IMG/VR virus record: IMGVR_UViG_2636415832_000002
Direction: 5' to 3' (one strand)
Source of the DNA: an uncultured virus (IMG/VR IMGVR_UViG_2636415832_000002)
Taxonomy: Duplodnaviria > Heunggongvirae > Uroviricota > Caudoviricetes
Length of the DNA stretch: 21,926 nt
The notes beneath the pieces are model-generated. The model saw nothing but the letters and a program-made list of their open reading frames with translations, ran no database searches and was not told where the DNA came from. The number at the start of each line of letters is the position of its first letter. Within the stretch, counting starts at the first letter, position 1. Position numbers and translations under genes: made by a program. Below, piece after piece: positions 1 through 21,926 of this stretch.

Positions 1-843
1 ACAAATACGGGTAGTTCACAACCTAACTTATCTGCAGCTAATGTGAAAAACTTTATTGTTCCATTACCAGATTTAAGAATTCAACACAAGGTTGTTCAAG
101 TTCTTGATATAGTTCAAGAACTTATCAATAAACGTAAACAACAACTTGAAGCATTAGACCAAGTAATACAAAGTATGTTTTTGGAGATGTTTGGTGATCC
201 AATTACAAATGTTAGGGGTTGGGAAATATCCCCGTGTAAAGATGTTGCTATTAAAATAGGTTCAGGCGCTACACCTAAAGGTGGTAACGCCAGTTATAAA
301 GATAGTGGTATCAGTTTGATTCGTAGTATGAATGTTTATAATAATAAATTTAGTTATAAAGATTTAGCTTTTATCGATGAAGAGCAAGCAGAAAAGCTAA
401 ACAATGTTGAGGTATTCAAAAATGATGTTTTACTTAATATTACCGGGGCATCTGTAGCTAGAAGTTGTATTGTTCCTACTGATATATTACCCGCAAGAGT
501 CAATCAGCATGTTGCTATTATCAGACCTAAAGAGGAAATGGTTAATTATATCTTTTTAAGCTATTTGTTTACAAATGAAATTTATCAAAGATATTTATGG
601 CAAATTGCTACAAACGGTGGGGCAACAAGAGAGGCTATAACAAAACAACAAATAGAAAAATTACCTGTAATTTTACCTCCACTTTACTTACAAAATGATT
701 TCGCAAGTAAAGTAGAACAAATAGAAAAACAAAAGTCATTAATGCAGTCAAGTATTGAAGAACTTGAAAATATGTATAATGCCTTGTTACAAAAAGCTTT
801 CAATGGAAATTTATTTAACGAGGAAAAGGTCTCTAATCTTTAA
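1..843 (+). CDS. hsdS: Type I restriction-modification specificity subunit (5'-truncated by window edge)
   Basis: Frame is open from base 1 (TNTGSSQPNLSAANVKNFIVPLP). Two PLP..Q coiled-coil conserved regions, EMFGDP, GSGATP, a TRD segment (NDVLLNITGASVAR, VNQHV) and the C-terminal LLQKAFNG motif. Directly upstream of hsdR. Confidence 0.95.
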   Translation, partial: TNTGSSQPNLSAANVKNFIVPLPDLRIQHKVVQVLDIVQELINKRKQQLEALDQVIQSMFLEMFGDPITNVRGWEISPCKDVAIKIGSGATPKGGNASYKDSGISLIRSMNVYNNKFSYKDLAFIDEEQAEKLNNVEVFKNDVLLNITGASVARSCIVPTDILPARVNQHVAIIRPKEEMVNYIFLSYLFTNEIYQRYLWQIATNGGATREAITKQQIEKLPVILPPLYLQNDFASKVEQIEKQKSLMQSSIEELENMYNALLQKAFNGNLFNEEKVSNL

Positions 844-861
844 TCAAAGGGAGGGGTAAAC

Positions 862-3800
862 GTGTCAAACTTTAGCTTCTTAAAAGACAAAAAGCAGTAC
901 AAAAGTTTTACTAATGCTTGTGTAGAAGCGGAAAAGGCTCTAATTGTAAGTCCAGCAGTAAGTGCTATTCAGTCTCGTCGAGCGCTGGAATTAGCAGTTA
1001 AATGGGTATACAGCTTTGATAGTGCAGCAATGATTCCCTACCAAGATAATTTATCTAGCTTAATACATGATTCGAACTTTCTAGCAATTATCGATGAAGA
1101 TTTATTGCCATTAATGAAATATATTGTGAAGTTGGGAAATGTAGCTGTTCATACAAATGCTCCGATTTCTCGTGATGAAGCGGTTTTATCGCTTCATCAC
1201 CTACATCAATTTATTTCGTGGATCGATTACTGCTACTCGGATGAATTTACTGCAGGAGAATTTGATGAATCTTTCCTTCAATTTGGTGAAGAAAAACGAG
1301 TACGTCCTGAAGAACTAAAAGATTTATATGAGCAATTAAGTTCAAAGGATAAAAAACTCGAAGAAGTGATGAAGGAAAATGAACATCTCCGTAAGAGTGT
1401 GACGGAAAAACGGGAACACAATACGAAAGATTACAACTTCCAAGTAGATGAGTTAAAAGAATTTGAAACTCGACTTAAATACATTGATCTCGACCTGAAA
1501 ATTGCCGGGTGGGAGTTTAATAAAGATATCATTCGTGAATATGAAGTTCAAGGAATGCCTAACAATGCAGGAACAGGTTATGTCGATTATGTCTTATTTG
1601 GTGACAACGGCAAGCCACTTGCTGTGGTTGAAGCAAAAAGAACTTCAAAGGATCCAAAAATTGGTCGTCAACAAGCCAAGTTATATGCGGATTGCATTGA
1701 AACGATGACGGGTACACGTCCAGTTATCTTTTATACAAATGGCTTTGAAACATATATTTGGCATGATCCATATCCACCAAGAAAAGTATCAGGTTTCTAT
1801 AATAAAGAAGAATTAAGCCTACTAATGGATCGCCGTGAAATGAAGCGACCTTTAAAAGATATTCAGATCAATGATTCGATAAGTAACCGTTATTATCAAA
1901 AAGAAGCTATTCTAGCAGTTTGCGATGCTTTAACACGTAATCAAAGAAAATCATTATTAGTAATGGCTACTGGCAGTGGTAAAACTAGGACCGCTATATC
2001 GATTGTTGATGTGTTGGCTAGACACAATTGGGTGAAAAATGTCCTATTCTTAGCTGACCGTAAAACGTTATTGAGTCAAGCATACAAGAACTTTAATACG
2101 CTAATGCCAAGTTTAACAATATGCAATCTACTAGACAATAAGGATAACCCGGAAGAAAGTAGAATGGTGTTTTCTACTTATCCAACCATGATGAATGCGA
2201 TAGACGATGTAAGAAGAAAAGATGGCAAGAAACTATTTACGGTTGGCCATTTTGATTTAATCATTATTGATGAATCACATCGTAGTATTTATAAAAAGTA
2301 TCGTAGCATCTTTGATTACTTTGATGGCATTTTGTTAGGATTAACAGCTACACCAAAAGATGAAATTGATAAAAATACGTATGAAGTATTTGATCTTGAA
2401 AATGGTGTCCCAACTTATGCTTATGAATTGGAACAAGCAGTAAATGATGGATACTTAGTTGACTATCGAACAATCGAAACGAAGATGAGGTTTCTAGAAG
2501 ATGGTATTCATTATGATGATTTATCAGATGAAGAAAAAGAAAAGTATGAGGAAACTTTTGATGAAGAAGATTTCAGAGAAGATATTGATAGTTCTGCCTT
2601 AAACGAGTGGTTATTTAACGACAACACAATTGATACTGTTCTGAAAAACCTAATGGAAAAGGGAATTCGTGTTGAAGGTGGAGACAAATTAGGTAAGACC
2701 ATTATTTTTGCTAAAAATCATAATCATGCAGAAAGAATCACTGAACGTTTTGATATTCTATTTCCGGAGTATAAAGGTGATTTTGCACGAGTTATAGATT
2801 ATAGCGTGAATTATTATCAAACCCTTATAGACGATTTTTCTGAAGTAAAAAAGCTACCACAAATTGCAGTTTCAGTGGATATGCTTGATACAGGTGTTGA
2901 CATTCCTGAAGTAGTAAATCTTGTTTTCTTTAAAAAGGTTCGTTCAAAGTCAAAGTTCTGGCAAATGATTGGTCGGGGAACGCGTCTTTGTCCTGATTTA
3001 TTAGGAATCGGAGAGGATAAAACACATTTCCTTATTTTTGATTATTGCGGAAACTTTGATTTCTTCCGGGAAAATCCGAAAGGAATGGACGGTCAAGTTG
3101 GGAAAAGTCTTACAGAAAAACTCTTTAATGCTAAAGTGGATATTATTCGTGAATTGCAAGGTCTTGATTATCAGACAGAAGAATATGTTGCCCATCGAAA
3201 TGAATTAGTTAATGTTGTGACTAAAGAAGTTTTATCGCTCGATAATGAGAATTTCAGGGTAAGACAGCATCTTCAATACGTAGAAAAATTCAAGAATCGT
3301 ACGAATTGGAATACTTTATCTGTCCTTGATACAAATGAGATAAAGGATCATATTTCACCAATTATTGTCCCAATGAATGATGATGAATTTGCCAAGCGTT
3401 TTGATTTAGTAATGTATACAATTGAATTGGCTAAATTACAAACAAGAAATGCAACGAAACCCATTCGAAGTGTCATTAAAACAGCAGAAGCACTATCAAA
3501 GCTAGGTACAATTCCGCAAGTGTTAGAAGCAAAACCAATTATTGATAAGGTTTTAACCGAGGAGTTCTGGGATAGTGCGGATATCTTTGAATTAGATTCT
3601 GTTCGTGCAGCGTTAAGGGATTTAATTAAATTCATCGAAAAAGAAACACAAAAAATATATTTTACGAATTTCCAAGATGAAGTACTTGAAGTTAACGAGA
3701 ACGGTCCAATGTACAATGTGAACGATTTAAAAAGTTATAAGAAAAAGGTTCATCATTACTTAAATCAGCATAAGGACCAAATGGCAATTTATAAATTAAA

Positions 3801-4200
3801 CAATAATAAGGCATTGACGGCAAAGGATGTAGAAATGCTTGAAAACATCTTATGGAACGAACTTGGAACAAAAGAAGATTATGAGAAAGACTTTGGTGAT
3901 ACTCCGATCACTAAACTCGTCCGTCAAATTGTTGGATTAGATCCTCAAGCAGCAAATGCAGCTTTTTCTGAGTTTCTATCAGAAGAACGATTAAATCTTA
4001 ATCAAATTCGATTTGTAAAATTGATTGTTGATTATGTCGTGAAAAATGGAACTCTTGATAAGAAGGTGCTGCAGCAAGAGCCGTTTAAGACTGTGGGAAG
4101 TATTGTTGAATTGTTTAAGGATAATATGGACGATGCAAAACGTATTATTGCAGTTATCGATGAGATTAATAGAAATGCTGAAGTGTTTACCGGGGCTTAA
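862..4200 (+). CDS. hsdR: Type I restriction endonuclease subunit R (EcoEI/EcoKI-like architecture)
   Basis: GTG start after GGAGGGG RBS. PD-(D/E)xK nuclease (VDYVL...VVEAKR), Walker A MATGSGKT, DESH box, LTATP and QMIGRGTR helicase motifs; 1112 aa. Confidence 0.97.
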   Translation: MSNFSFLKDKKQYKSFTNACVEAEKALIVSPAVSAIQSRRALELAVKWVYSFDSAAMIPYQDNLSSLIHDSNFLAIIDEDLLPLMKYIVKLGNVAVHTNAPISRDEAVLSLHHLHQFISWIDYCYSDEFTAGEFDESFLQFGEEKRVRPEELKDLYEQLSSKDKKLEEVMKENEHLRKSVTEKREHNTKDYNFQVDELKEFETRLKYIDLDLKIAGWEFNKDIIREYEVQGMPNNAGTGYVDYVLFGDNGKPLAVVEAKRTSKDPKIGRQQAKLYADCIETMTGTRPVIFYTNGFETYIWHDPYPPRKVSGFYNKEELSLLMDRREMKRPLKDIQINDSISNRYYQKEAILAVCDALTRNQRKSLLVMATGSGKTRTAISIVDVLARHNWVKNVLFLADRKTLLSQAYKNFNTLMPSLTICNLLDNKDNPEESRMVFSTYPTMMNAIDDVRRKDGKKLFTVGHFDLIIIDESHRSIYKKYRSIFDYFDGILLGLTATPKDEIDKNTYEVFDLENGVPTYAYELEQAVNDGYLVDYRTIETKMRFLEDGIHYDDLSDEEKEKYEETFDEEDFREDIDSSALNEWLFNDNTIDTVLKNLMEKGIRVEGGDKLGKTIIFAKNHNHAERITERFDILFPEYKGDFARVIDYSVNYYQTLIDDFSEVKKLPQIAVSVDMLDTGVDIPEVVNLVFFKKVRSKSKFWQMIGRGTRLCPDLLGIGEDKTHFLIFDYCGNFDFFRENPKGMDGQVGKSLTEKLFNAKVDIIRELQGLDYQTEEYVAHRNELVNVVTKEVLSLDNENFRVRQHLQYVEKFKNRTNWNTLSVLDTNEIKDHISPIIVPMNDDEFAKRFDLVMYTIELAKLQTRNATKPIRSVIKTAEALSKLGTIPQVLEAKPIIDKVLTEEFWDSADIFELDSVRAALRDLIKFIEKETQKIYFTNFQDEVLEVNENGPMYNVNDLKSYKKKVHHYLNQHKDQMAIYKLNNNKALTAKDVEMLENILWNELGTKEDYEKDFGDTPITKLVRQIVGLDPQAANAAFSEFLSEERLNLNQIRFVKLIVDYVVKNGTLDKKVLQQEPFKTVGSIVELFKDNMDDAKRIIAVIDEINRNAEVFTGA

Positions 4201-4255
4201 AAGCAAGTACTAATCAATTGTTACGACACTATGATTTAGAAGTAACAACATCATG

Positions 4256-4302
4256 AATAAGCAGAAGTGTTCCTCAGCAATAGGATCTTCTGCTTATTTT
4301 TA
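4256..4302 (+). terminator. Intrinsic terminator-like hairpin between hsdR and the CBASS operon
   Basis: AATAAGCAGAAG (4256-4267) pairs with CTTCTGCTTATT (4287-4298), running into a T tract. Confidence 0.7.
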
Positions 4303-4330
4303 TCCTGTTAAGGTTGTAGGTGATAAGTCA

Positions 4331-4948
4331 ATGGAGGAAAATATTTATGTGAAACAAGTAAAAAAACTAAGGAAAAAAGCGGAGAATTCAAGAAATGCTT
4401 ATTTTATGTTAACCAAAAGGTATAAATTTTATAGTAATTCGCTACATTTTTTTATCTTAGTTGGATCAACTATAATAGCCATTTTAACTTTTGCAAATTT
4501 TGATGTGTTTTTACCTCTAATAAAGGACCTAACAGATTCAACATACAAACTTTCTATTGGACTAATTGCATCTTCGGTATTTATCCTAACCGTAATTGAG
4601 GAATTTCTTAAATTGTCAAATAAGTCATCGGAATATGAAAGCTCAGGAAAACAATTAACATCTTTTATCAGATATGCGGATTCAGTAGAGAAACGAGAAA
4701 ATATTAATGATGAAGATTTGGCACAACTAACTCTTTACTACACATTAATATGTGAATCTACACCTATTATTCCAGATAAGTTCTTTTTTAAAGCCAAAAG
4801 ACAACTCTACAGAAAAATCGAGTTGAGTAAGGAATTGGAAAAAAATCCGGATACTATCTTATGGCTTTATAAAGTAAAGAGATTTAGAAAAGAGGTAAAT
4901 TCTCTGTTTAAGAAGGGAGATATTGATAAGAATGACGAGGGAAAATGA
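4331..4948 (+). CDS. Two-TM SLATT-like membrane effector of type IV CBASS
   Basis: ATG 4331 follows AGGTGA RBS; the ORF-track start at 4253 lies just before the terminator hairpin, so that extension would run through it. Helix-TM-TM-helix layout (SLHFFILVGSTIIAILTFA; LSIGLIASSVFILTVI). Overlaps the start of the QueC-like gene. Confidence 0.75.
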   Translation: MEENIYVKQVKKLRKKAENSRNAYFMLTKRYKFYSNSLHFFILVGSTIIAILTFANFDVFLPLIKDLTDSTYKLSIGLIASSVFILTVIEEFLKLSNKSSEYESSGKQLTSFIRYADSVEKRENINDEDLAQLTLYYTLICESTPIIPDKFFFKAKRQLYRKIELSKELEKNPDTILWLYKVKRFRKEVNSLFKKGDIDKNDEGK

Positions 4949-5507
4949 CTCCGTTCTAGTGTTAGCAAGTGGTGGCATTGATTCTACCGCTTTAATAGAA
5001 TATTACGCGTCAAAAAAATATAAGGTTTCTGCACTGTTTTTCGATTATGGACAGATTAGTCGTACGAAAGAGCTACAAGCCGTTAGGAAAGTATGTAGTT
5101 ATTATGGAATTAAACTAGAAGAAGCTCAATTAGGATTCACTTTAAAAAATACTAGTGGAGAATTTATAGGGAGAAATGCACTATTTATTACATCTGCATT
5201 TAATTTTTTACCAAATAATTATTCTAAAATATCTATAGGGATTCATTCAGGTACACCTTATTATGATTGCTCAAAGACGTTTGTTGAAGATTTTCAAAGA
5301 ATCGTAGATGGCTATTTTGAAGGAACAGTTTTAATTGATGTACCATTTGTTGAATTTACAAAGGGTCAAATTATTGAATATTGTTTACAAGAAAATGTGC
5401 CAATAAATCTTACATACAGCTGTGAAAATGGTTATGAAAAAAACTGTGGTAAGTGTTTATCTTGCTTAGATAGGAGAGAATTTCTTGGAAAAAGTGACCT
5501 TATGTGA
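4932..5507 (+). CDS. cap9: QueC-like PP-loop ATP pyrophosphatase, CBASS Cap9
   Basis: SGGIDS PP-loop, FDYGQ, RN motif, YYDC and the YSC...CGKCLSC zinc site. ATG 4932 after AAGGGAG. Operon context is CBASS rather than queCDEF. Confidence 0.88.
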   Translation: MTRENDSVLVLASGGIDSTALIEYYASKKYKVSALFFDYGQISRTKELQAVRKVCSYYGIKLEEAQLGFTLKNTSGEFIGRNALFITSAFNFLPNNYSKISIGIHSGTPYYDCSKTFVEDFQRIVDGYFEGTVLIDVPFVEFTKGQIIEYCLQENVPINLTYSCENGYEKNCGKCLSCLDRREFLGKSDLM

Positions 5508-6459
5508 AGAAAGAGTAATTAGTATAATTGAGACCAGTACTCCAGTATTAATACCTTCCTTTTCGAGCAAAGGTATAAAGCAGTTTGATAAGACTTTCTA
5601 TTCATTAAAAGATTACCTATCAGAAGTAACCTTATTTAGTGCCTACGATTTATATTACAAACTAGTTGATAAAGAGCTTATCTATGAAACTGATATGTTG
5701 TTTATAGATAGTGGTGGATATGAGGCATCAATTGAACCTGATTTATCCGAAATATATGGGTTTGGTCATAATCCTAATGATTGGAAAGAGGAATTATATC
5801 TTAATCAAATCGACACTTTGGAAGAACTTTCAAATATTGTATTAATAAACTATGATTATCCTAAGATCCCTTTTTCCGAACAAGTGAATAGAGCAAAATC
5901 AATTTTTACGAAGTATCCATCGTTTGCTAGTGATTTTTTAATAAAGCCTGATACAATATTTGGAAAATTCGATATGGAAAAACTTTTGGAGGATTTACAA
6001 CTCTGCTCTAATTTTTCTGTCATAGGATTTACCGAAAAAGAGCTAGGATTATCTGTTTTTGAAAGATGTAGAAACATTTATAAGATAAGAAAACGACTAA
6101 ATCAAATTGGGTTGAATAAACCTATTCATATTTTTGGCTGTTTAGATCCGTTAAATATCATAACTTACTTTTTATGCGGTGCCGATATTTTTGATGGATT
6201 ATCTTGGTTAAGATATGGATTCCAAAGTAACCGGCCTATTTATATTAATAGCTATGCTATTTCCAGTGGAAAGTGGATGTATACTAACGATGAAGTCAGG
6301 ATTATAACGTACCTAGAAAATATTAAGATACTAAATGCTTTAAAGCATAAAATGAAACTTTATATTAAAGAGAAGGATTTATCAGTGTTTGAATTAGACC
6401 AGCAGACCGAAACGGAAATATTCAACCTTATGGAAATAATTAAAGAAGAGGGGTTTTAA
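5485..6459 (+). CDS. cap10: TGT-like (tRNA-guanine transglycosylase fold) protein, CBASS Cap10
   Basis: TP..IPSFSSKG, FIDSGGY, IHIFG and GADIFDG motifs of the TGT TIM barrel. TTG start with AGGAG RBS; overlaps cap9. Confidence 0.85.
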   Translation: MEKVTLCEERVISIIETSTPVLIPSFSSKGIKQFDKTFYSLKDYLSEVTLFSAYDLYYKLVDKELIYETDMLFIDSGGYEASIEPDLSEIYGFGHNPNDWKEELYLNQIDTLEELSNIVLINYDYPKIPFSEQVNRAKSIFTKYPSFASDFLIKPDTIFGKFDMEKLLEDLQLCSNFSVIGFTEKELGLSVFERCRNIYKIRKRLNQIGLNKPIHIFGCLDPLNIITYFLCGADIFDGLSWLRYGFQSNRPIYINSYAISSGKWMYTNDEVRIITYLENIKILNALKHKMKLYIKEKDLSVFELDQQTETEIFNLMEIIKEEGF

Positions 6460-6460
6460 A

Positions 6461-7342
6461 TTGGGAGGAAGCGGTGGATGGAATGTACCCAGTAAAACAT
6501 TAAAAGAACTGTTAGAAGAAAAGGCAAAACAAAGGCAAAAAGAAAATGATAGAGAAATAAATGACTTTCTACAATCCTTGTTAAAAGAACTAAATAATCG
6601 TGATACTGAACAGGTACAAAAACATCTTAACACGTTAAAGGCTGCAATTGAAAAAGAAATTGACGGAGCTGTTGATCTTTTATTCGGTGGTTCATTAAGT
6701 AAACACACCTATGCACAGGGATTAAGTGACATTGATATGTTAGTACGAATTAACAATACTCAATTAGCTAATGCCAAACCACAAGAGGTCTTAGACTATT
6801 TTGCAAAACAAATAAAGACCAGATTACCAAAGACTGAAGTAAAAAAAGGAGATTTGGCTGTCACCGTTAAATTTAGCAGTGGATATGAGGTTCAATTATT
6901 ACCAAGTATAAAAACTGCCACTGGATATAAAATTGCAAAACCGGGTTTAAATGAATGGAGCAATGTTATCAAACCCAAAAAATTTGCTGAGAAATTAACT
7001 AGTGTTAATCAATCCAATGGTGGCAAGATAATTCCGATGATAAAGCTGTTTAAGATGATTAACGATCAATTTCCAAAGAAAGCCCAGCTTTCAGGTTATC
7101 ACATTGAATCACTTGCGATTGAAGCTTTTAAGAATAGACAAGTATATCCAAAGACAGTTAAAGAAGCCTTACAAAAGTTTTGCGAGCATTCAAGAACAAC
7201 GGTGTTAAGTCCCATCAAGGAGAGTACCGGCCAGTCTATACATGTAGACGATTATTTAGGAGGGAAAAATAGCGATATTAGAAGAAGAATCAGTAATAAT
7301 ATTAGAATCATACAAAAAAAATCGATAATGCAAGTTCAGTAG
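6461..7342 (+). CDS. cGAS/DncV-like nucleotidyltransferase (CD-NTase), CBASS cyclase
   Basis: Pol-beta motif FGGSLSKHT...SDIDML, a third-strand EVQLLP motif and SGYHIE. TTG start 2 nt after the cap10 stop. The C-terminus may be frameshifted (see findings). Confidence 0.92.
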   Translation: MGGSGGWNVPSKTLKELLEEKAKQRQKENDREINDFLQSLLKELNNRDTEQVQKHLNTLKAAIEKEIDGAVDLLFGGSLSKHTYAQGLSDIDMLVRINNTQLANAKPQEVLDYFAKQIKTRLPKTEVKKGDLAVTVKFSSGYEVQLLPSIKTATGYKIAKPGLNEWSNVIKPKKFAEKLTSVNQSNGGKIIPMIKLFKMINDQFPKKAQLSGYHIESLAIEAFKNRQVYPKTVKEALQKFCEHSRTTVLSPIKESTGQSIHVDDYLGGKNSDIRRRISNNIRIIQKKSIMQVQ

Positions 7343-11790: not shown

Positions 11791-13029
11791 TTATTCTCTC
11801 CTTTCTTCTTTGGGCGTGTACAGCTGTTTCGTGCGTAGTAGCGAATGCACGAGCCGTACAAGTTTTCTAGCGGTTAAGACGAGAGCGCGTTTGTGTTGAT
11901 GCTTGGTTACTTCTTGATATTTCTTTTGATAAAAGGCTTTATATTCGGTGTCATGTTTTCGTATGGCGTCTGAAGCTTGTACAAGATAATAGCGTAAATA
12001 CTTATTGCCGGTTCGCATCCGACTGGTGTTTTCAGACTCATATTCACCTGATTGATGCTGTGTCCATACGAAACCTGCGTATTTCGCTAAAGCGTGGTGA
12101 TCATCAAAACGATGGATATCGCCAATCTCTGCGATTAAGCCCGCTGCGTACACGGGACCGATGCCTTTTACTGATGTTAATGTTTGCGGAATACCTTTCA
12201 TCATGCGTTCGATTTCTTTATCTAAACGCTTTACTTGGGTTTCCATGTGCTGAATCGTGCTCAGAATGACTGATAAAGAAAGATTGACGGGATCCGCCAT
12301 CACTTTATCTAAACGATAGGAATTGCGAGCGAGCTGCTTGAGATATTTCGCCATCTCCTCTGGCGCCACAAAACGATTTTTGCCTTTCTCTTGTAGGAAC
12401 TCTACGAGCTCCTCTAAAGGCATATCGGCAATGATACCTGGATCTAGTTCTTCTATCACCGCGACACTTGTCGCACCGAATGTATCGGAGAACGGATTAT
12501 CTTGGCGTAAGCCACTAAATTTTAAGTACAGTTGATTTAACATGTATGTTTTATTACGGGCAATTTCATGGACTAAATGGAAGCGCGTGCGTGTTAATCG
12601 ACGAAGTGCATCGTAAATTAAGGTTTCTTGCATTTCATGTGGCAATCGTCCAAAGCGTAGATGATCCGCAATAACCCAGGCGTCTATTTTGTCGTTTTTC
12701 GGTAACATATCATAGCCCTTCTTAAAACGGGAAACTTTACGTGCGTTGAGCATATAAATCGCTGTTTGAAGATGTGGTACTACTTTCTTACATTGTGCTT
12801 TTAAGTAATGGGCAAGGTGCCAACTATATTGATCCGTGGCTTCCATCCCAATTTTTAATTGATCTGTTTGATTTTTTTCCGCTGTTCGTATAATTTTTTG
12901 AATCAAGGTGTCCGCACCTTCTACATCATTTCGAACAGAAAAATCAGCGAGTGTGTGACCCTCTCCATGCATGAAATGGACATGATGGGAGCGCAAACTC
13001 ACGTCAATACCGACTAGCATTTGTGACAT
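11791..13029 (-). CDS. IS110-family recombinase/transposase
   Basis: DEDD RuvC-like motifs GIDVS, MEAT, KNDKIDA; GIGPVYAAGLIAEIGD, YAG, catalytic QSG, GNKYLR, ARKL. ATG 13029 after AGGAGG. Confidence 0.97.
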   Translation of the reverse strand: MSQMLVGIDVSLRSHHVHFMHGEGHTLADFSVRNDVEGADTLIQKIIRTAEKNQTDQLKIGMEATDQYSWHLAHYLKAQCKKVVPHLQTAIYMLNARKVSRFKKGYDMLPKNDKIDAWVIADHLRFGRLPHEMQETLIYDALRRLTRTRFHLVHEIARNKTYMLNQLYLKFSGLRQDNPFSDTFGATSVAVIEELDPGIIADMPLEELVEFLQEKGKNRFVAPEEMAKYLKQLARNSYRLDKVMADPVNLSLSVILSTIQHMETQVKRLDKEIERMMKGIPQTLTSVKGIGPVYAAGLIAEIGDIHRFDDHHALAKYAGFVWTQHQSGEYESENTSRMRTGNKYLRYYLVQASDAIRKHDTEYKAFYQKKYQEVTKHQHKRALVLTARKLVRLVHSLLRTKQLYTPKEERRE

Positions 13030-13044
13030 GCCAATCACCTCCTA

Positions 13045-13625
13045 AAGGGGGAATTAATCAAGATACACGCAGACCTGGGTGCCCAGTCGAATCATCGATG
13101 TCTGCCTCGTGATGAGCAATCGCATGGAGAAGACCATAATTGAGCGCTACACTCTCTTCAATCATTGCGTCGCAGCCAGTGGTTAGACCTTCCATAATGA
13201 ACGATGGGTAGCAGGCTTATGAAGCAGTACACATGCGTGTCCGCAAGGAGGAAAAGCTATTTCCTGCGAATACCTTGTCCGTTCCATTGTCTCATGGGCA
13301 CAGTCTGAGTGAAATAAAAGTTGTCATAAAAAAGGACGAAGTACTGAAATGGAGCCTCCTCCATCCTTCGCCCTTGTGCTATAAAATTGGGTTAAAAAAG
13401 TGTATGACAAATAAACAGGCAAGCACCTGTGAGCAATACTTTAAGAAAAGATGATAAATAATGAAAATAGTGATTTCCTTTTGGCTCCCTCGGTCAAACC
13501 AGGGGCAAACAGGTAAAACATAAAACAGGAGTGAGGGAGCCAATTGGCGACCACTTCCTATAGGAAATCCAACAGATCCTCCAGCTGTCCGGATCAACTG
13601 GAAATTCTATCGGAAAGAGCTCTTA
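13045..13625 (-). ncRNA. Putative IS110 bridge RNA within the long upstream non-coding end
   Basis: About 600 nt non-coding end downstream of the junction promoter, containing segments that match the reconstructed target and donor sites. RNA boundaries not determined. Confidence 0.55.
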
Positions 13626-13651
13626 CTACTAATATACGAGGAGGAATATTA

Positions 13652-15466
13652 ATGGAGAAATCAAACTCTATAGAAAGAAAAAAGACAAGTATAGAAAATA
13701 GTATTGGGTTGTATTGCGAGCTGCTGATGGCCCTTAATACTGATTCGAATATACTAATAAATAATAAAGAAAACTATTACTACTTGGAGGGTAAAGGGAA
13801 TAATGGTGATTCTAGGGAAGATCCGTTATCAAACTTCATTATCGAACCGCTTTATTTTACCAAAAGTAAGAAGGGCATAACTAAGTTTATATTAAAGTTT
13901 ATCTCTAACAATCATTCAAAAGTAGTTGAGCTAGATGGTGAAACCTTAGCGATTAATCATTCCTTTAAGAAATTTTGTATAAATCAAGGCAAATTTAATT
14001 GGAAAGGTAAGCAGCATCATTTAGACGATTTAATCGATTTTATTATGGTTGGGGCCTCAAAAGAAATCACTATGATACCATATATAGGCTGGAATTCAAA
14101 AGAGAAAATTTGGATTTTCCCTACCCATGCATACTCTCAAGGAAATGTTTACTTTCCTAATAATGATGGGGTTTTTGAAATTGACAACAGTTATTTCAAG
14201 CTAGAGGTAGATAAGGATGATGAATATTTTATCCAACCGCATATTTCAACTGAACCATCTAAGAAGGAAATTGTTGAATACTTTAGAGATTTGAAAATGC
14301 TGTATAAGGATTATTCATATCTAGGTTTTGGATATATAGCAAGTTCATTTCATGTTGACGCTATTACTGAAAAAACGGACTTTTTCCCATTTTTATATAC
14401 TCACGGGAAAGCTGGACATGGAAAAAGCGCATTTATTAATATTATCTCTAAATTTTCGGGGATGAAGGTATCACTAACAAATCCTCCATCTTTAGATGGA
14501 TTAAGAAAAGGTATTAGTGGAAAAGCAAGTCTTCCGTTTATTATCGATGAAGCAGAAGATAAAAATGATAGGTCGCGTGGGAGAGATTTCTTTAAATATT
14601 TGTCCGATACTATAAAGGTTATTTACATGCGTTCTATATTAAAAAGAGGACATAAAGATGAAGAAAGATTGGTTTATTATCCGATAAGAGGTACGTTATT
14701 TTTAGGTGGAGAGGTGTTGACTAGTGTTGCATCAATCATACAACGTTCCATTCTTATTGATTCTTCCAAAATTACTAAGAATGAAGATGTATATAAGAAA
14801 GTTAAGGACAGTCAAATGCCTTTTTGGATAGGTCAATTTCTTATGCGAACTTCTCATGTATGGCAATCATATTTTTTAGACTTATATGATGAAATTACAG
14901 CTTATTTTATTAAACAGGGGTGGACAAATATCGATGTCCGTATACGCTGCAACTATGCTATATTCTTAGCTGGTGCTTTAGCTGCCATTAAACATTTGAA
15001 TAATTATTTTGAAATGGAGCTAATTTCGGAAGATGAGTTGAAAACTATATATCTTTTTATATATGAAGAAATGAAGGAAACAAAAAGAATGACGGAAAGT
15101 GATCATCCGTCAATGCAATTCTTAATGAAAATTGGATTACTTGCGAATAAAGGTGTTTTAAGTAAAGACATTGATTATAAGTGTATCAAGCAGAAGGATG
15201 GCCATGTTTATTTGTATTTAGCTCCTTCTAACGTCATAGAAGCATACAAGAGTAATGAAAAAACTCCGTTTTATACAACGAGCCATAAAGCAATTAAAGA
15301 CCTTCAAAATCAATCATTTTTTTGGGGGACTCGAAAACTTCGTATTGGACAAAGTCAGCCTACTGCATGGATTATACAGCTTACTCACCCTAATAACCCA
15401 GAGTTAATTAAGGAGGGGATAATACATCCCGATCTACCGGATACAATGGTTTATTTTTATAATTAA
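13652..15466 (+). CDS. P-loop NTPase, probable mobile-element replication helicase/initiator (primase-associated helicase-like)
   Basis: True ATG at 13652 after AGGAGG. Walker A GKAGHGKS, Walker B IIDEAE, IIQRS arginine-finger-like motif; 604 aa; followed by a repeat-rich AT-rich region. Confidence 0.7.
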   Translation: MEKSNSIERKKTSIENSIGLYCELLMALNTDSNILINNKENYYYLEGKGNNGDSREDPLSNFIIEPLYFTKSKKGITKFILKFISNNHSKVVELDGETLAINHSFKKFCINQGKFNWKGKQHHLDDLIDFIMVGASKEITMIPYIGWNSKEKIWIFPTHAYSQGNVYFPNNDGVFEIDNSYFKLEVDKDDEYFIQPHISTEPSKKEIVEYFRDLKMLYKDYSYLGFGYIASSFHVDAITEKTDFFPFLYTHGKAGHGKSAFINIISKFSGMKVSLTNPPSLDGLRKGISGKASLPFIIDEAEDKNDRSRGRDFFKYLSDTIKVIYMRSILKRGHKDEERLVYYPIRGTLFLGGEVLTSVASIIQRSILIDSSKITKNEDVYKKVKDSQMPFWIGQFLMRTSHVWQSYFLDLYDEITAYFIKQGWTNIDVRIRCNYAIFLAGALAAIKHLNNYFEMELISEDELKTIYLFIYEEMKETKRMTESDHPSMQFLMKIGLLANKGVLSKDIDYKCIKQKDGHVYLYLAPSNVIEAYKSNEKTPFYTTSHKAIKDLQNQSFFWGTRKLRIGQSQPTAWIIQLTHPNNPELIKEGIIHPDLPDTMVYFYN

Positions 15467-16929: not shown

Positions 16930-17030
16930 GAAGAGTGATTTTATTACTATGGGTAGAAGAAGAAATCAATAATCGAAAAGCTGAAATGTAATCTTCATAA
17001 GCGCTTAAATCATTGATAATGCTCCTTAGC

Positions 17031-17065
17031 AAAAAGAGAAGCACATATGTATGGGCTTCTTTTTT
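17031..17065. terminator. Bidirectional terminator between convergent genes
   Basis: AGAAGC.CATA / TATG.GCTTCT stem flanked by A and T tracts. Confidence 0.65.
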
Positions 17066-17134
17066 CTGGGTATAAATTGTCACCAGCGATTCTATTTCAA
17101 AATTACTTAATGTATCTAGATGGCCCTTAGAGCT

Positions 17135-17884
17135 TTAGCAGTCCTCTTCAAGTCTTTTTAAAGCTCTAGCATAGGCTGCATTTCGCTCCTTTTCTTCCCA
17201 ATCAAGATTTTGAAGTATACGTTGCCAATAAATATTCCCTTTATCGGCGTAAGACTTTGCTGTCTCCCGCCATAAAAAAGCTTCTGCCTCTTCTAAAACG
17301 ATAAATGATCTGCTTTGAATTTTGAAATGGGGCATACCCTCTTCTTTTATTAAATTGTATATCGTGGCAGGACTTGATCTGAAATACTCGGCAGCTTCTT
17401 TTACTGTTAACACTGTTCTTCCATAGTAACGTGTTTTTTCTTTTTTTGCTTCCGCATATAAATCCTTAGAAAATTTATCAAGTTCCTCTCTTATTATTTC
17501 CCTTAGTATATCTTCAATCATTTTTGAATCCTCCTTGTTCTTTTCAAAAGCTAGAATTTCAGATTGTACTTTCGCAACAGCCCATTTGTCTTCTGGATCC
17601 GACCAGCCCAATTCTTTGTATTCAGAAACTGTATCCTTAATCGCATTTTCATCGAAGACTATTCTTCCTTTTATTTTTAAATGCGGCATTGCCCTTGAGT
17701 ATGTTAATTGCCGCAATACAGAGGAACCGATTCCAGTGGAACTTACAGCTTCTTTCATTGTTATAAACCTTTTTGAAGTAGTTTTTTTCATTTGGGACAA
17801 ATGGTTTCTAAGCATGAGCATTTCTTCATGAATGATTTTGATTATTAAGGATTCAAAAGAGTAGCTATTCTCCTTATTTTCCAT
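17135..17884 (-). CDS. Protein with two excisionase-like (HTH_17/MerR-like) DNA-binding domains
   Basis: ITMKEAVSSTGIG...MPHLKIKGRIVF and LTVKEAAEYFRSSPATIYNLIKEEGMPHFKIQSRSFI; GAGGTG RBS. Confidence 0.85.
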   Translation of the reverse strand: MENKENSYSFESLIIKIIHEEMLMLRNHLSQMKKTTSKRFITMKEAVSSTGIGSSVLRQLTYSRAMPHLKIKGRIVFDENAIKDTVSEYKELGWSDPEDKWAVAKVQSEILAFEKNKEDSKMIEDILREIIREELDKFSKDLYAEAKKEKTRYYGRTVLTVKEAAEYFRSSPATIYNLIKEEGMPHFKIQSRSFIVLEEAEAFLWRETAKSYADKGNIYWQRILQNLDWEEKERNAAYARALKRLEEDC

Positions 17885-18087
17885 AGTTCACCTCTTAATT
17901 TAGAATATTATGTATAAATTATAAATCAAATTATAGAGCATTAGTTCTCGGTGTGTGGTTAGTTTGATATGTGCTGTATAATATAAATAGATTATATGGT
18001 AAATTTTAACTAGGTAAAATAAATTCTACTTGGGATTCAGAACCCAGTTCATAAAAGTATTTATAAAGCAAATTTAAATATTAATAA

Positions 18088-18264
18088 GGAGCTGATGAGA
18101 AGAATCTAGACCCTTTTTATGACGAATTGGAAGAATCATTGAAGAAGGAACTCCCCACATTACTTAATGGCGTTAATGCTTTAGATATTGGTTGTGGTAG
18201 GAGATGGTTTTCAAGATACTTTAATAACGATATTAATTTAAGTGTTCTTAGCTTCTTGGCATAG
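18088..18264 (+). pseudogene. Fragment of a class I SAM-dependent methyltransferase
   Basis: Short frame encoding NALDIGCGRRWFSRYF (motif I at 18181-18198), bounded by stops and with no clear start. Confidence 0.55.
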
Positions 18265-18400
18265 ACAAGAGCAGGGAAAACATCGAATTTTGCTTATCTA
18301 ATGCCCAAAGTTCTAATCTTAATTTTGAGGTAAGGGTTTATCACTAATGACCAACTATCAATAAAAAGTAGATAAATGCATTTTTTAAATCCTATTGTTA

Positions 18401-18409
18401 TGGTAACAT
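18401..18409 (+). promoter_or_regulatory. Candidate extended -10 promoter for the ncRNA-RT transcript
   Basis: TG-G-TAACAT; would put +1 near 18416, just before the first hairpin. No good -35. Confidence 0.35.
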
Positions 18410-18415
18410 TTTATA

Positions 18416-18694
18416 TGTAGGTATTAGCCTAAAGCGTGTGTATCTAGATACACATGCGTCCCGATAATCGGTATAGGGCATTCGTTTCGATGATTTATAA
18501 TATAATTATAGACGTTGAAACTGAATGGAGGATAACGCTAATGAATCTATTAATGCAACTATTAATTGACTTATCAGTTTATCCAGCAGTCTTATGCAAT
18601 ATAGGACTGTTAAACTTTAACCTATCATTTTTGTTAGGGAGGCGGTTGAAAACCAATTCCTCCTTGTCCACCGCCGCAATATAATGGAGGAATT
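18416..18694 (+). ncRNA. Putative RT-associated structured RNA (~280 nt)
   Basis: Near-contiguous stems found by eye: 18434-18457, 18458-18479, 18479-18527, 18530-18584, 18585-18611, 18621-18638 and 18641-18675, many with G-U pairs, ending at the RT RBS. Confidence 0.7.
18541..18684 (+). CDS. Candidate 47-aa hydrophobic small ORF inside the RT leader
   Basis: GGAGG at 18527-18531, 9 nt, then ATG; MNLLMQLLIDLSVYPAVLCNIGLLNFNLSFLLGRRLKTNSSLSTAAI; stop 2 nt before the RT RBS. Confidence 0.3.
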   Translation: MNLLMQLLIDLSVYPAVLCNIGLLNFNLSFLLGRRLKTNSSLSTAAI

Positions 18695-18700
18695 ACAGTA

Positions 18701-20128
18701 ATGAGTACAGATGATTCTTTTAAAAAATTTGTAACTAGAAATAAAATTAAAGAGACTTTTGAACTGTATGTTGCTCAAAAGACTGACACTTTAACTGATG
18801 AACACCAAGTTAAAGTCCCAGAAGGTCTTGATGGTATAGATTACAAGTTATTTCAAAAAACTCTTGCTCATCAAGTTGATACAATCTTCAAAAGGATACA
18901 ACGAGGAAATTACTACTTTTATCCGCTGAGAGAAGTAAAGATTTCAAAAGATCCATTATTGAATATTAAGGATGCTGAAAAGCAAGGGAAAATAAGAAAA
19001 TTGTCAATTGCTACTATTAGAGATGTTATAATTCAAAAAATGTTATATGACTATCTAAGTCCATTTACTGAAGAGAAATTTACTGAATTACCATATGTTA
19101 GTTTTGCGTATCGTAAAAATGTAAATGCTCAGAAGGCAGCACAGAAAGTATTCAATGATCTAAATGATCAGTATATTTATGCTCTTGATGCTGATTTAAA
19201 AGGATTTTTTGATACTATTCCTCATGATAAGCTTTTTAAACAAGTTCTGACTTTTTTTAAAGATATGCCTGAAACTCACAAGCTTCTTTATCGTTTTATT
19301 CATATTGATATCGGATACAAAAGTAAGAATAAAAATAAGGTAATTAGAGAAAAGCGTAAAGAAGGTATTCCACAAGGTGGGATAATTTCCGGAATGCTAG
19401 CAAATATATATCTTCATCAATTTGATTTCTGGATAATGACAGTTTTAAAAGCTAAATATGATATAAGGTATACAAGGTATGCTGATGATTTTATCATATT
19501 AGCAAAAAATAATGACAGTATTACAAATATTCAAGAGGAATGTAAGGAATTCCTTGAAAATATTGGGCTAGTACTACACCCAGACCCCCAAAAAACAAAA
19601 ATATGTACACTAACTAATAGTAGAAGTTTAGATTTTGTTGGATTCAAAATTTCACAAAAGTATATTGGTGTCAAAGATAGTAATATAAAGAAATTTAAAA
19701 TAAGAATAGAAGAAATTTTAAAAACTACAGACTTTAAAAAGAAGAAGTCACTAGAGCTTTTAAAATTAAGGATGAGTTATAAGTACTTCGGTAATGAATA
19801 TAAGAGTTTCAAGTGTAAAACCTGCGGAAATTTTGAAAAATCGAGAAATTGGATGAGATTTTTTTTAGTGATTACAGATACAAATCAGTTAAAGAATTTA
19901 GATAAATGGGTCTATAAATCCATAAACTATTATTATTATAAGAAAACAGGGGAAAGGCTTCCTAAAAATGCGTTAAAGCAATTGGATTTCCCTTCTTTAG
20001 AATTACTTTATTATAACTATCGAAAACAGTTAAGCTATGAAAATGAGTATTGCCAATGTAATGCTATAGATAAAAATCTTTATGCCACTAAAAATCCTTA
20101 TAATGAGTTATTCAATATTTATACATAG
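18701..20128 (+). CDS. Stand-alone reverse transcriptase (group II-like / UG-DRT-type), probably defence-associated
   Basis: GLDGID (RT0), RKLSIATIRD, SFAYR, DADLKGFFDTI, GIPQGG, YADD and LDFVGF motifs; thumb NWMRFF...LDKWV; extra CKTC and CQC cysteines; GGAGG RBS. Confidence 0.95.
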   Translation: MSTDDSFKKFVTRNKIKETFELYVAQKTDTLTDEHQVKVPEGLDGIDYKLFQKTLAHQVDTIFKRIQRGNYYFYPLREVKISKDPLLNIKDAEKQGKIRKLSIATIRDVIIQKMLYDYLSPFTEEKFTELPYVSFAYRKNVNAQKAAQKVFNDLNDQYIYALDADLKGFFDTIPHDKLFKQVLTFFKDMPETHKLLYRFIHIDIGYKSKNKNKVIREKRKEGIPQGGIISGMLANIYLHQFDFWIMTVLKAKYDIRYTRYADDFIILAKNNDSITNIQEECKEFLENIGLVLHPDPQKTKICTLTNSRSLDFVGFKISQKYIGVKDSNIKKFKIRIEEILKTTDFKKKKSLELLKLRMSYKYFGNEYKSFKCKTCGNFEKSRNWMRFFLVITDTNQLKNLDKWVYKSINYYYYKKTGERLPKNALKQLDFPSLELLYYNYRKQLSYENEYCQCNAIDKNLYATKNPYNELFNIYT

Positions 20129-20220
20129 TTAGACTTTTTTGATATAAACTCCTCCTTTGGGTGAATTAACATTATCTAAAATAACTTCTTTTTATAAGGA
20201 TCCCTTAAACACAATGATCT

Positions 20221-20257
20221 AGGCACATTTCAGGAGAAGAAATGTGCCTTCTGTTTT
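20221..20257 (+). terminator. Intrinsic terminator between the RT and OLD genes
   Basis: AGGCACATTTC-aggagaa-GAAATGTGCCT, a perfect 11-bp stem followed by TCTGTTTT. Confidence 0.75.
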
Positions 20258-20312
20258 ATAAATCATTTAATTGCAAATACATCTATTGAAATGGATTGGG
20301 GGAAGAAAGTAA

Positions 20313-21926
20313 ATGTTATTGAAAAAGGTTAAAATTTATAATTATAAGAAGTTCGAGGACTTTTCTTTAGATTTTGATAGTAACTATTCAATAATGATAG
20401 GGAATAATGGGGCTGGTAAATCAACATTTTTAGAAGCAATTCACTTAGCGTTGACAGGGACAATCAATGGGAAACCAATCTTTTATGAGTTATCTCCCTA
20501 TATATTTAATAGAAAAATTGTTAACAAGTTTATCGAGGAAGTAAAAAATGATAATAAAAAAACTCCACCTGAAACAATAATCGAGTTATACTTCGGAGAG
20601 TCAGAAGACTCTGACCTCAATGAATTATTGGGTATGGAGAATAGCGAAAATATGAATGTGCCGGGATTTGTATTCTCTATTAAATTTAATGAGCATTATC
20701 GAGGGGAATATCAGCAGTATATTGAGAATGAAAATTTTATACATATTCCTACTGAGTACTATACAGTTGAATGGAAAAGTTTCGCAGGATTAACAATAAC
20801 TACAAGATCGATTCCTATAAAATCACACCTTATTGACTCCACTACTACAAGTCTAGCTACTAGTTCACAAAAGTATATTATGAAGATTATCTCAGATGTA
20901 TTAGATGAAAAACAAAAAGCTAATTTAGCAGTTCTCTACCGAAGCTATAAGGAAAAGTTTGGTGAAGATCCTAATATAGCCTCTATAAATGAAGTGTTAA
21001 ACGAGAAGAAAAATCTTATGTTAGACGACACTAGGAATTTATCAATATCGTTGGATGTTACTCAAAAGGCTACTTGGGAATCTGCAATAGCTGCCTTCTT
21101 AGACAATATCCCTTTCGATTATATCGGTAAAGGGGAGCAAAATGTTATAAAGACTACACTATCTATTGGAAACAGGAAGCCTAAAAGAAATTTAATACTA
21201 ATAGAGGAACCTGAGAGTCATCTGTCATTTTCAAACATGAGAATCTTATTAGAAAAAATAATATCAGAGTGTTCTGATCAACAATTACTTATTACTACTC
21301 ATAGTTCATATGTATTAAATAAAATGGCAATGGAAAATGTTATTCTTCTTGGTGAAAATAGAAGTGGGAAGCTAAATCAATTGCCAAAGGATACAAGAGA
21401 CTATTTTCAAAAACTACCGAACTATGACACTTTAAGATTTATTTTATCTAAGAGGGTAATATTGGTCGAGGGGCCTGCAGATGACTTAATCATCCAAAAA
21501 GCCTACCATCAAAGATATAATAAACTTCCGTTAGATGACGGGATAGATGTCATATCAGTAAATGGGCTATCATTCAAAAGATTTTTGGATATAGCAAAGT
21601 TACTAAATATAAATACTGTAGTAGTTACAGATAACGATCATGATTATGAAAAGAATATTAACAACAAATATAGAGACTATACGGGTGGTACAATTAAATT
21701 GTGTTTTAGTACAAATAATGAGCTAAATACGTTAGAACCACAGGTGTTAAAATGTGATGCTGGTAATTATGATAAATTAAAAACTATACTAGGAAAACAA
21801 GATAAGTCTGAAGAAGAGTTGTTAGAATTTATGCTGAAAAACAAAACTGATTGGGCGCTAAAAGTATTTTTAAACAGCGAAACACAATTAAATTTTCCGG
21901 AGTATATAAATGATGCCATCCAATAA
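20313..21926 (+). CDS. OLD-family ATP-dependent endonuclease (ABC ATPase plus TOPRIM), Gabija GajA-like
   Basis: Walker A GNNGAGKS, signature GKGEQ, Walker B IEEPESH, H-loop TTHS, TOPRIM VEGPADD and DND. Any partner gene would lie outside the window. Confidence 0.9.
   Translation: MLLKKVKIYNYKKFEDFSLDFDSNYSIMIGNNGAGKSTFLEAIHLALTGTINGKPIFYELSPYIFNRKIVNKFIEEVKNDNKKTPPETIIELYFGESEDSDLNELLGMENSENMNVPGFVFSIKFNEHYRGEYQQYIENENFIHIPTEYYTVEWKSFAGLTITTRSIPIKSHLIDSTTTSLATSSQKYIMKIISDVLDEKQKANLAVLYRSYKEKFGEDPNIASINEVLNEKKNLMLDDTRNLSISLDVTQKATWESAIAAFLDNIPFDYIGKGEQNVIKTTLSIGNRKPKRNLILIEEPESHLSFSNMRILLEKIISECSDQQLLITTHSSYVLNKMAMENVILLGENRSGKLNQLPKDTRDYFQKLPNYDTLRFILSKRVILVEGPADDLIIQKAYHQRYNKLPLDDGIDVISVNGLSFKRFLDIAKLLNINTVVVTDNDHDYEKNINNKYRDYTGGTIKLCFSTNNELNTLEPQVLKCDAGNYDKLKTILGKQDKSEEELLEFMLKNKTDWALKVFLNSETQLNFPEYINDAIQ

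Follow-up and report, generated by a model that had tools for sequence, protein, structure and literature searches.

What is a short open reading frame (ORF) with a ribosome-binding site of its own doing inside the structured RNA that precedes a reverse transcriptase (RT) gene? The question is raised by positions 18527-18684 of a 21,926-nucleotide (nt) stretch of DNA from an uncultured virus of the Caudoviricetes (IMG/VR record IMGVR_UViG_2636415832_000002), the whole of which is called the window here. The ORF and a set of 12-nt repeats at its start lie in an 815-nt gap before the RT gene. The original prediction offered three ideas for them, namely a template from which the RT adds 12-nt units in the manner of telomerase, a counterpart of the neo gene made by the RT of the DRT2 system (DRT, defence-associated reverse transcriptase), and a small membrane effector. 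The neo analogy has turned out to be the best lead, with a Shine-Dalgarno (SD) sequence plus ATG, a stop-free unit and a split promoter in all eight non-coding RNAs (ncRNAs) compared. The reading preferred here, put forward tentatively and as somewhat short of probable, is that a group-II-intron-like RT outside UG2 builds a DRT2-like concatemer gene on the ncRNA-sense strand, the product of which would be the effector. On this best reading the small ORF would be the stub that linear DNA retains of the concatemer gene, and the 12-nt repeat would be an in-frame duplication of four codons inside its repeating unit.

The RNA and the RT that follows it comprise the following features, the hairpins being those of the ncRNA fold.

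18401..18409, plus strand: likely extended -10 promoter of the ncRNA, TGgTAACAT, with a predicted transcript start near 18416
18416..18700, plus strand: conserved structured ncRNA of about 285 nt (fold z-score, covariance model, covariation)
18425-18429 with 18644-18648, plus strand: closing helix
18434-18457, plus strand: hairpin H1
18460-18478, plus strand: hairpin H2
18479-18527, plus strand: hairpin H3
18530-18584, plus strand: hairpin H4, the central part of the ncRNA, which holds the start of the small ORF
18585-18611, plus strand: hairpin H5
about 18615-18642, plus strand: hairpin H6
18655..18694, plus strand: H7, formed by AATTCCTCC and GGAGGAATT, of which the latter is the ribosome-binding site of the RT (inverted repeat, consensus helix)
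18701..20128, plus strand: RT of 475 amino acids (aa) (profile, sequence and structure comparison)

The placement of the ORF within an RNA that partners the RT, as originally proposed, is borne out by a covarying ncRNA directly upstream of the RT. The fold of this ncRNA has a z-score of -5.45. A covariance model built from four sequences matches directly upstream of the RT in 8/8 Bacillota loci, with scores of 335-268 bits in close relatives and of 54, 34 and 26 bits at 50-39% RT identity. The loci added by the model are L182 (RT 94% identical), L183 (50%), L184 (39%) and L006 (39%). In five sequences, aligned by fitting to the model and thus with counts biased towards it, 93.3% of the cells are paired vs about 42% in slid-partner controls, and compensatory changes occur in 30 of the 88 pairs, a level reached by 0/500 shuffles. 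Among relatives at 70% RT identity the conservation extends from near 18415 up to the RT start, and the identity is 66-91% in the ncRNA vs 38-45% for the 300 nt farther upstream. The boxes TAATAT, TATAAT and TAAAAT of loci L003, L004 and L005 align with 18401..18409, and conservation starts just 3' of them; on this alignment the site is likely to be the ncRNA promoter. Expression of the ncRNA-RT module is seen in metatranscriptomes of soil, rhizosphere and fermentation. Three metatranscriptome studies contain RNA contigs, 223-241 nt long, that span only 18438-18675, 18448-18668 and 18451-18669, unlike a DNA run that extends into the RT; they faintly suggest a stable RNA that ends where the contigs do. 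The ncRNA had no match in the plasmid collection, and a 19-nt motif of it had none among the viral contigs.

Covariation testifies to selection at the RNA level, and in that respect it also suits an alternative in which the ncRNA acts as a scaffold, as the template of a single complementary DNA (cDNA) or other non-coding product, or as a leader that controls RT translation. H7 would fit the last of these roles, as it pairs an anti-SD with the ribosome-binding site of the RT and would mask it. This alternative is taken up again below with the evidence from the relatives. Some further observations concern the fold itself. GGCGG (18643-47) and CCGCC (18672-76) can form a candidate pseudoknot with H7. 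The 9-nt sequence AATGGAGGA occurs in exact form both before the small ORF (18524-18532) and at the ribosome-binding site of the RT (18683-18691), and the one anti-SD, AATTCCTCC at 18655-18663, is able to pair with either copy, a choice of partner that could couple the ncRNA fold to RT translation. Two large DNA contigs of a close relative in run X2 break and overlap at the palindromic H1 (window 18425-18454), which the inverted repeat most likely caused during assembly.

The small ORF and its repeats were described as follows.

18527..18531, plus strand: SD-like GGAGG at the H3/H4 junction (GGAG(G), 7-12 nt and ATG in 8/8 ncRNAs)
18539..18574, plus strand: three 12-nt units (sequence, Tandem Repeats Finder, shuffles)
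18541..18684, plus strand: 47-codon ORF (length comparison across 8 ncRNAs)

All that had been reported of these features is found in the sequence. The GGAGG at 18527-18531 is followed after a 9-nt gap by the ATG at 18541-18543, and the 47-codon frame runs from there to the TAA at 18682-18684 and encodes a hydrophobic peptide; it forms the distal portion of a 76-codon ORF (18454..18684). The three 12-mers TAATGAATCTAT, TAATGCAACTAT and TAATTGACTTAT fill 18539-18574, the exact CTATTAAT occurs twice (at 18547 and 18559), and Tandem Repeats Finder gives an array at 18539-18566 with a period of 12, 2.3 copies and a score of 42. The start codon is also buried as cautioned, the minimum free energy fold showing one long imperfect hairpin (18529-18584) over the ATG, which is possible because ATTAAT is self-complementary. 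Chance was gauged with dinucleotide shuffles of 18416-18700. Of these, 208/2000 contained an exact direct repeat of at least 8 nt at a period of at most 24, and 130/2000 an ATG-initiated ORF of at least 47 codons. Three tandem 12-mers with 8/12 identical columns were reached by 0/2000 shuffles at period 12, and a triple repeat of equal identity fraction at any period of 6-15 by 69/1000. The ORF and the repeat exist, yet within the window alone they exceed chance only marginally.

The relatives decide what the ORF is not. From the same SD-ATG, the eight ncRNAs encode 47 (window), 21, 21, 21, 16, 17, 13 and 12 aa, and only the first 12-21 codons of the window ORF have counterparts in the others. 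The outlying length of the window's ORF results from an H5 loop that is short by 2 nt relative to L182 and to runs X15, X16 and X20; L182 is among the relatives with the longer H5 loop and a short ORF. Contigs of close relatives, of RNA as well as of DNA, carry net indels in the distal ORF, namely +4, +2 and +4 in X2, X16 and X20. Of the conservation of frame and ribosome-binding site, the SD-ATG part stands (8/8 ncRNAs) and the 47-codon length does not (0/7 relatives). By this comparison 18541-18684 is not a gene for a 47-aa peptide. A role of the peptide as a small membrane effector that serves the RT system can scarcely be upheld, even though its ORF is preceded by a Shine-Dalgarno sequence, its composition is hydrophobic and no effector gene adjoins the RT. 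The comparison already contradicts it, with 12-21 aa in 7/7 relatives, including L182 at 94% RT identity, and with frame-shifting distal indels. Moreover, the enclosing 76-aa frame matches no PADLOC or Pfam family, and an ORF as long is given by the same 130/2000 shuffles.

What the relatives do retain is a pattern around the ORF start, the elements of which are listed below; the boundaries of the repeat unit are an inference of this analysis.

18484..18487, plus strand: A, GTTT in the 5' arm of H3, the proposed 5' end of the templated unit
18484..18576, plus strand: proposed repeat unit of 93 nt or 31 codons (H3 and H4), in the order -10 box, SD, ATG, -35 box
18496..18501, plus strand: TATAAT in the H3 apical loop, which would become a -10 box only through concatenation
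18566..18571, plus strand: TTGACT in the H4 loop, within TTGACTTAT, a motif common to L006; a -35 box only after concatenation
18577..18580, plus strand: A', GTTT immediately next to the basal 3' strand of H4, the proposed re-annealing site

The SD and the ATG stand directly after H3 in all eight ncRNAs (GGAG(G), 7-12 nt, ATG). Upstream of them the same frame is free of stops for 31, 31, 31, 36, 37, 42, 34 and 24 codons, vs 0-8 in the other two frames. The upstream open length is reached by 320 (window), 202 (L183), 214 (L006) and 550 (L184) of 4000 shuffles, which gives p ~0.008 by Fisher's method over these four most independent lineages. No start codon is conserved upstream of the SD-ATG in the open frame, and the idea of a small protein that starts upstream was rejected on that ground. 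H3 and H4 together are flanked by the direct repeat A/A', which is GTTT at 18484 and 18577 in the window. The two copies lie 93 nt apart in the window, L182, L003 and L005, 81 nt in L004 and L183, 75 nt in L006 and 84 nt in L184, in every case a multiple of three, and L006 has TGTTCC at both places, a joint change. With the Oscillatoria locus L007 included, the SD-ATG frame contains no stop in 9/9 units, and the other sense frames contain 1-9.

A promoter appears to be divided between the two ends of the unit. The -10 box precedes the -35 box in linear DNA, an order useless for a promoter, whereas a head-to-tail junction of A' and A would space the -35 and -10 boxes by 17 nt in 8/8 units. This spacer is composed of 5+12 nt in six units, 3+14 nt in L006 and 9+8 nt in L184. 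The junction promoters match the consensus at 11, 11, 11, 11, 10, 9, 11 and 9 of 12 positions, and none of the eight linear ncRNAs contains a promoter site of at least 10/12. Arbitrary endless in-frame boundaries reach the observed promoter score in 1.5, 2.7, 6.0, 3.9 and 16.5% of cases (Fisher's method over four lineages, p ~0.002), and shuffled units do so in 4, 48, 329, 17 and 256 of 3000. In this way, sequence comparison establishes the covarying ncRNA, the placement of the RT, the conserved SD-ATG, the open frame, the in-frame spacing and the geometry of the split promoter.

Other boundaries were considered and discarded. The TTTAT pair at 18494/18578 (84-nt unit) would leave a junction spacer of just 8 nt. 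The AATGGAGGA pair at 18524/18683 (159-nt spacing) as jump sites would keep the TAA stop in the unit and is not conserved in L004 and L006. The idea of an extended homology between the sequences after A and after A' was likewise dropped. When A and A' were required to occupy identical alignment columns in five sequences, the count was 0, the L006 alignment being too loose for that test.

The segment 18484-18576 is read as a neo-like template because its conserved features match the design rules of DRT2. According to the consulted part of PMC11100668, DRT2 is an RT-only system with an upstream ncRNA, in which rolling-circle reverse transcription with jumps at a 3-nt homology (ACA) yields concatenated cDNA that becomes double-stranded upon infection; a promoter forms across the junction, the ribosome-binding site and start codon lie inside the 120-nt, 40-codon unit, and the ORF is endless. 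By analogy, the RT would copy the 93-nt ncRNA segment 18484-18576 (H3 and H4), the end of the nascent cDNA at GTTT A (18484) would re-anneal to the identical GTTT A' (18577), and copying would restart to give head-to-tail cDNA. Once this is double-stranded, each junction would set TTGACT (18566) 17 nt upstream of TATAAT (18496) and so create a sigma-A promoter. Its transcript would be of ncRNA sense and would carry, in each unit, GGAGG-9 nt-ATG and a stop-free frame of 31 codons, that is, an endless ORF, and the repeat protein may be the effector of this RT-only system. The cDNA synthesis, the template jumping, the second strand, the transcription, the translation and the toxicity are all steps that we infer.

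The likeness to DRT2 covers several aspects. Here too the system is RT-only, and its RT gene is immediately preceded, on the same strand, by a structured ncRNA a few hundred nt long. A short homology is found at both ends of a template of about 100 nt, the unit is of whole codons with one stop-free frame and with ribosome-binding site and start codon inside, and the promoter halves would meet only across the junction, so that linear DNA displays only a short ORF stub. The two systems differ in the RT family (NCBIfam NF041746 97.5 vs 390 bits; solved DRT2 RT 9c0i 39.9 bits) and in the ncRNA, which is unrelated. The ORF and promoter are in ncRNA sense here and neo is antisense, the antisense frames here having stops in 7/9 units. 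Further, the unit is of 75-93 nt here vs 120 nt, and the proposed jump homology is GTT(T) or TGTTCC vs ACA. In the literature, mostly at the level of abstracts, no system of this kind was found outside DRT2; the homologue tables for DRT2 and the UG groups in the supplements may include the family.

Several points weigh against the concatemer gene. No joints were found in the contigs of four runs, where a rare cDNA would be beyond the contigs' reach, the 93-nt junction not having been searched in reads. The RT is not of the DRT2/UG2 kind (97.5 bits vs a cut-off of 390), and the ORF is sense to the ncRNA, whereas the neo mRNA of DRT2 is antisense according to the portion of PMC11100668 consulted. 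Substitutions in the ORF frame are not enriched in synonymous changes, the counts of synonymous to nonsynonymous being, for example, 0:4 for the window vs L005 and 1:19 for the window vs L183, and preservation seems confined to the frame and its freedom from stops. A sits within the 5' arm of H3, at no obvious boundary, and in L184 the A/A' homology is just 3 nt (GTT) and there are two candidate -10 boxes. The boundaries were picked after inspecting many repeat pairs, and each ncRNA offers 3-13 endless candidates of at least 4 nt (one in L184). A second recurrent pair, (A)ATTG(A), lies near the SD and would give units of 33-51 nt without a -10 box. The independent lineages number only about four to five. 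The Oscillatoria locus L007 has the SD-ATG, 40 open codons and the GTTT pair, but a 13-nt junction spacer, and the Nostoc locus L177 shows none of SD-ATG, open frame, GTTT pair and junction promoter.

Against this background the other roles for the ncRNA have to be reconsidered. If it is a scaffold, a template for a single or non-coding product, or a leader, then the short ORF would be there by chance or would encode a small leader peptide, and the split promoter and the open frame would be coincidences of AT-rich motifs. The lack of a synonymous excess fits such a role. Similarly, the peptide similarity (IDL, WR) tracks the conserved nucleotide motifs TTGACTTAT and TGGAGG, and -10- and -35-like hexamers are frequent in AT-rich DNA, with 9 found vs 15 expected. 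Such a role would nevertheless leave unexplained the stop-free SD-ATG frame, 24-42 codons upstream in every lineage, the spacing differences by multiples of three alone, the different sub-distances in L006 and L184 that sum to the same 17-nt spacer, and the lack of an encoded effector in the system. Taken together, a role of this kind is possible though doubtful.

Could the 12-nt repeat itself be the template? In the telomerase-like or DRT10-like explanation, the RT would copy CTATTAAT-GCAA (A-B), realign on the downstream CTATTAAT (A') and add 12-nt units to give single-stranded DNA of tandem repeats. As outlined in the consulted parts of PMC12632851 and bioRxiv 10.64898/2026.04.29.721553, DRT10 consists of a UG17 RT, a SLATT protein and a 137-nt ncRNA, and makes protein-primed tandem-repeat cDNA from an A-B-A' template. 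The window resembles it in having a candidate A-B-A' direct repeat (8-nt A, 12-nt period) in a loop downstream of a stable hairpin, a kind of repeat that is common in these ncRNAs, and in pairing a defence RT with a putative template ncRNA; RT_UG17 is moreover the top named PADLOC DRT hit (170 bits). The position of the repeat also suits the proposal. It follows the stable H3 and the basal stem of H4, in a stretch without conserved internal pairing. In the window, L003, L004 and L005 a 12-nt-period repeat (4-8 nt) ends beside TTGACTTAT, and in L006 an 8-nt-period TGATT repeat does so. The TAAC/TAAT mismatch of L003 falls on the fourth base, a position tolerated by DRT10 according to the part of PMC12632851 consulted.

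The comparison lends little weight to 12-nt addition, since the RT is not UG17, such repeats are common and the conserved features remain unexplained. Short-period repeats of 5 nt are common, with 5 to at least 8 listed per ncRNA, and the 8-nt repeat was matched by 208/2000 shuffles. The repeat homology goes down to 4 nt in L003, and the matching 8-nt short unit of L006 has stops in all six frames, so that the 12-nt unit fares poorly as an added repeat. B segments longer than 10 nt performed poorly in DRT10, as far as the consulted part of PMC12632851 tells, and a concatemer of the 12-nt unit had 0 matches in the genome assembly. Nor does 12-nt addition account for the SD-ATG, the open frame upstream of it or the divided promoter. 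The first two 12-nt units are an in-frame duplication of four codons (MNLL and MQLL) on the 5' side of the H4 loop, and L004 is without exactly 12 nt of the array and retains GGAGG-9 nt-ATG; L183 also has the short form.

The identity of the RT bears on the same issue. Its top named PADLOC hit, RT_UG17 (PDLC03754; = DRT10), has 170.5 bits over model positions 3-357. Over 401 Bacillota genomes, the same model gives 520.7 and 488 bits (positions 1-429) for two true members and about 130-188 bits for multi-copy intron RTs; the second RT of this genome scores 150.9. The hit is therefore unspecific, 170.5 bits being within the ordinary intron-RT range, and membership of UG17 was rejected against the 488-521 bits of true members. 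In tblastn the RT gives 93-102 bits vs true UG17 loci and 97-114 bits vs intron RTs. At E <=1e-30, PDLC03754 matches 124 of the 401 Bacillota genomes, nearly all through intron RTs at 130-188 bits; matches below about 400 bits should not be taken as DRT10. No SLATT domain was found by Pfam in the window ORFs scanned, and the genome gave no match to PF18160, a search that also came up empty in every control genome. The true UG17-C locus L165, for comparison, has SLATT_5 (E 5.5e-36) immediately before its RT. DRT10 thus differs in an RT that scores well above intron RTs and in its SLATT gene, and its ncRNA is unrelated to the one here and half the length, the covariance model being silent at the true UG17 loci L165 and L166. 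Telomerase-like addition is, on balance, improbable.

From its sequence and predicted fold, the RT is an unclassified, free-standing, group-II-intron-like enzyme. The group II intron maturase model TIGR04416 gives 197.9 bits, below its cut-off of 300. The closest solved sequence is the group II intron RT 7uim (89 bits), and the predicted fold has TM-scores of 0.70/0.79 with the GsI-IIC RT, followed by DRT9 (about 0.65), G2L4 and DRT2. Membership of UG2/DRT2 is excluded by NF041746 (97.5 bits vs a cut-off of 390) and PADLOC Drt2 (108 bits); sequence matches to solved structures give 39.8 bits for G2L4 9d4s and 39.9 bits for DRT2 9c0i. The active site YADD is invariant in the family, and the C-terminal region contains CxxC...CxC.

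The relation to intron RTs suggests a further possibility, that of a decayed group II intron with the RNA as a remnant of intron domains and the RT as a former maturase. Its appeal lies in the same closest matches (TIGR04416, 7uim, GsI-IIC). The TIGR04416 score is under the cut-off, however, and Rfam finds no intron RNA family in 17000-21926 at E <=1. Nothing is conserved in the 3' flank of the RT, where domains V/VI would lie, and the module is a single intact copy whose 5' RNA is kept down to 39% RT identity in varied contexts. A decayed intron is very improbable on these grounds. Likewise, the domesticated G2L RTs are near in sequence and predicted fold and are free-standing without an intron ribozyme, as is this RT, which differs from them by a dedicated conserved 5' ncRNA and by the CxxC...CxC region. 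Its active site is YADD vs YIDD in G2L4 and YVDD in G2L3/UG10 (= DRT7), the latter two as given in the consulted part of PMC4244168, and the match to the solved G2L4 is just 39.8 bits. DRT9 (UG28 RT and ncRNA, poly-dA) is similar in being a two-part system of RT and ncRNA and gives the second-best structural matches (TM ~0.65), and it differs in that the ncRNA here has no conserved U-tract template and PADLOC Drt9 scores 112.7 bits.

The wider setting of the module is a defence island, with these neighbours in the window.

43-4200: type I restriction-modification genes HsdS and HsdR (profile search)
4253-7342, plus strand: four-gene operon resembling CBASS (cyclic-oligonucleotide-based antiphage signalling system), namely two-transmembrane (2TM) effector, QueC, TGT and cyclase
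11791-13038, minus strand: IS110 transposase
17135-17884, minus strand: helix-turn-helix protein
20221..20249, plus strand: terminator-like hairpin after the RT (terminator scan)
from 20313: Gabija GajA

The operon was assigned from PDLC00684 for the 2TM effector (E 1.3e-92), QueC (1.2e-81), TGT (6.6e-126) and the oligonucleotide cyclase (6e-129). The 2TM protein (4253-4948) is the CBASS effector and lies 13.7 kilobases from the RT module; it weakly matches RT-associated SLATT models (E 1.7e-05). A 640-aa ORF (13544-15466, plus strand) between the IS110 transposase and the RT module is matched by nothing in Pfam, PADLOC or NCBIfam. In the RT-GajA interval, Rfam reports isrC, an Hfq-binding small RNA of Salmonella, at 20160-20270 (minus strand; 38.7 bits, gathering score 39, E 5.7e-06). 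The match overlaps the terminator hairpin 20221-20249 and probably arose by chance from a fold that resembles a terminator, the genome being one of the Bacillota.

Judged from the loci compared, ncRNA and RT form a two-part module of defence islands. The flanking genes vary among loci, the sequence 3' of the RT is not conserved, and in a Nostoc plasmid the RT stands between HsdR and DarT/HsdS. The family is present in 4/370 genomes of the window's order, in 2/401 of the class sample, in 2/401 of the phylum sample and in 4/401 in the order of G1123, and protein relatives of 36-40% identity occur in cyanobacteria and Chloroflexota. A search of genome contigs with the RT alignment gave three family members among the 80 loci listed, the rest being mainly group II introns, and the same search of metagenome contigs gave 0 among the 79 loci listed. 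With the single RT, no relative was found in genome contigs or viral contigs, and the phage collection contained no match to the RT. L182 (G1305:C1) is from a genome of G1123's order, and its 94% identical RT and near-identical ncRNA (316 bits) point to a recent horizontal transfer of the module. Split RT homologues of two ORFs each are found in L008 (Cetobacterium; 3001-4517) and in L178 (genome G755; 1450-2920), the latter with a different short leader before the split RT; both may be decaying copies.

Even if the concatemer reading fails, an uncatalogued pair of RT and ncRNA in Bacillota defence islands stands, and the PADLOC RT_UG17 hit is documented as a false lead because intron RTs score the same with that model. 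To date, DRT2 is the only family known to synthesize a gene de novo through reverse transcription. If the reading preferred here is true, hidden genes in circularly permuted form would be no curiosity but a design that recurs, and they would be findable by a signature that consists of an SD-ATG stub, a startless upstream open frame, in-frame flanking homology, and a -10 box placed before a -35 box at the unit length minus 17.

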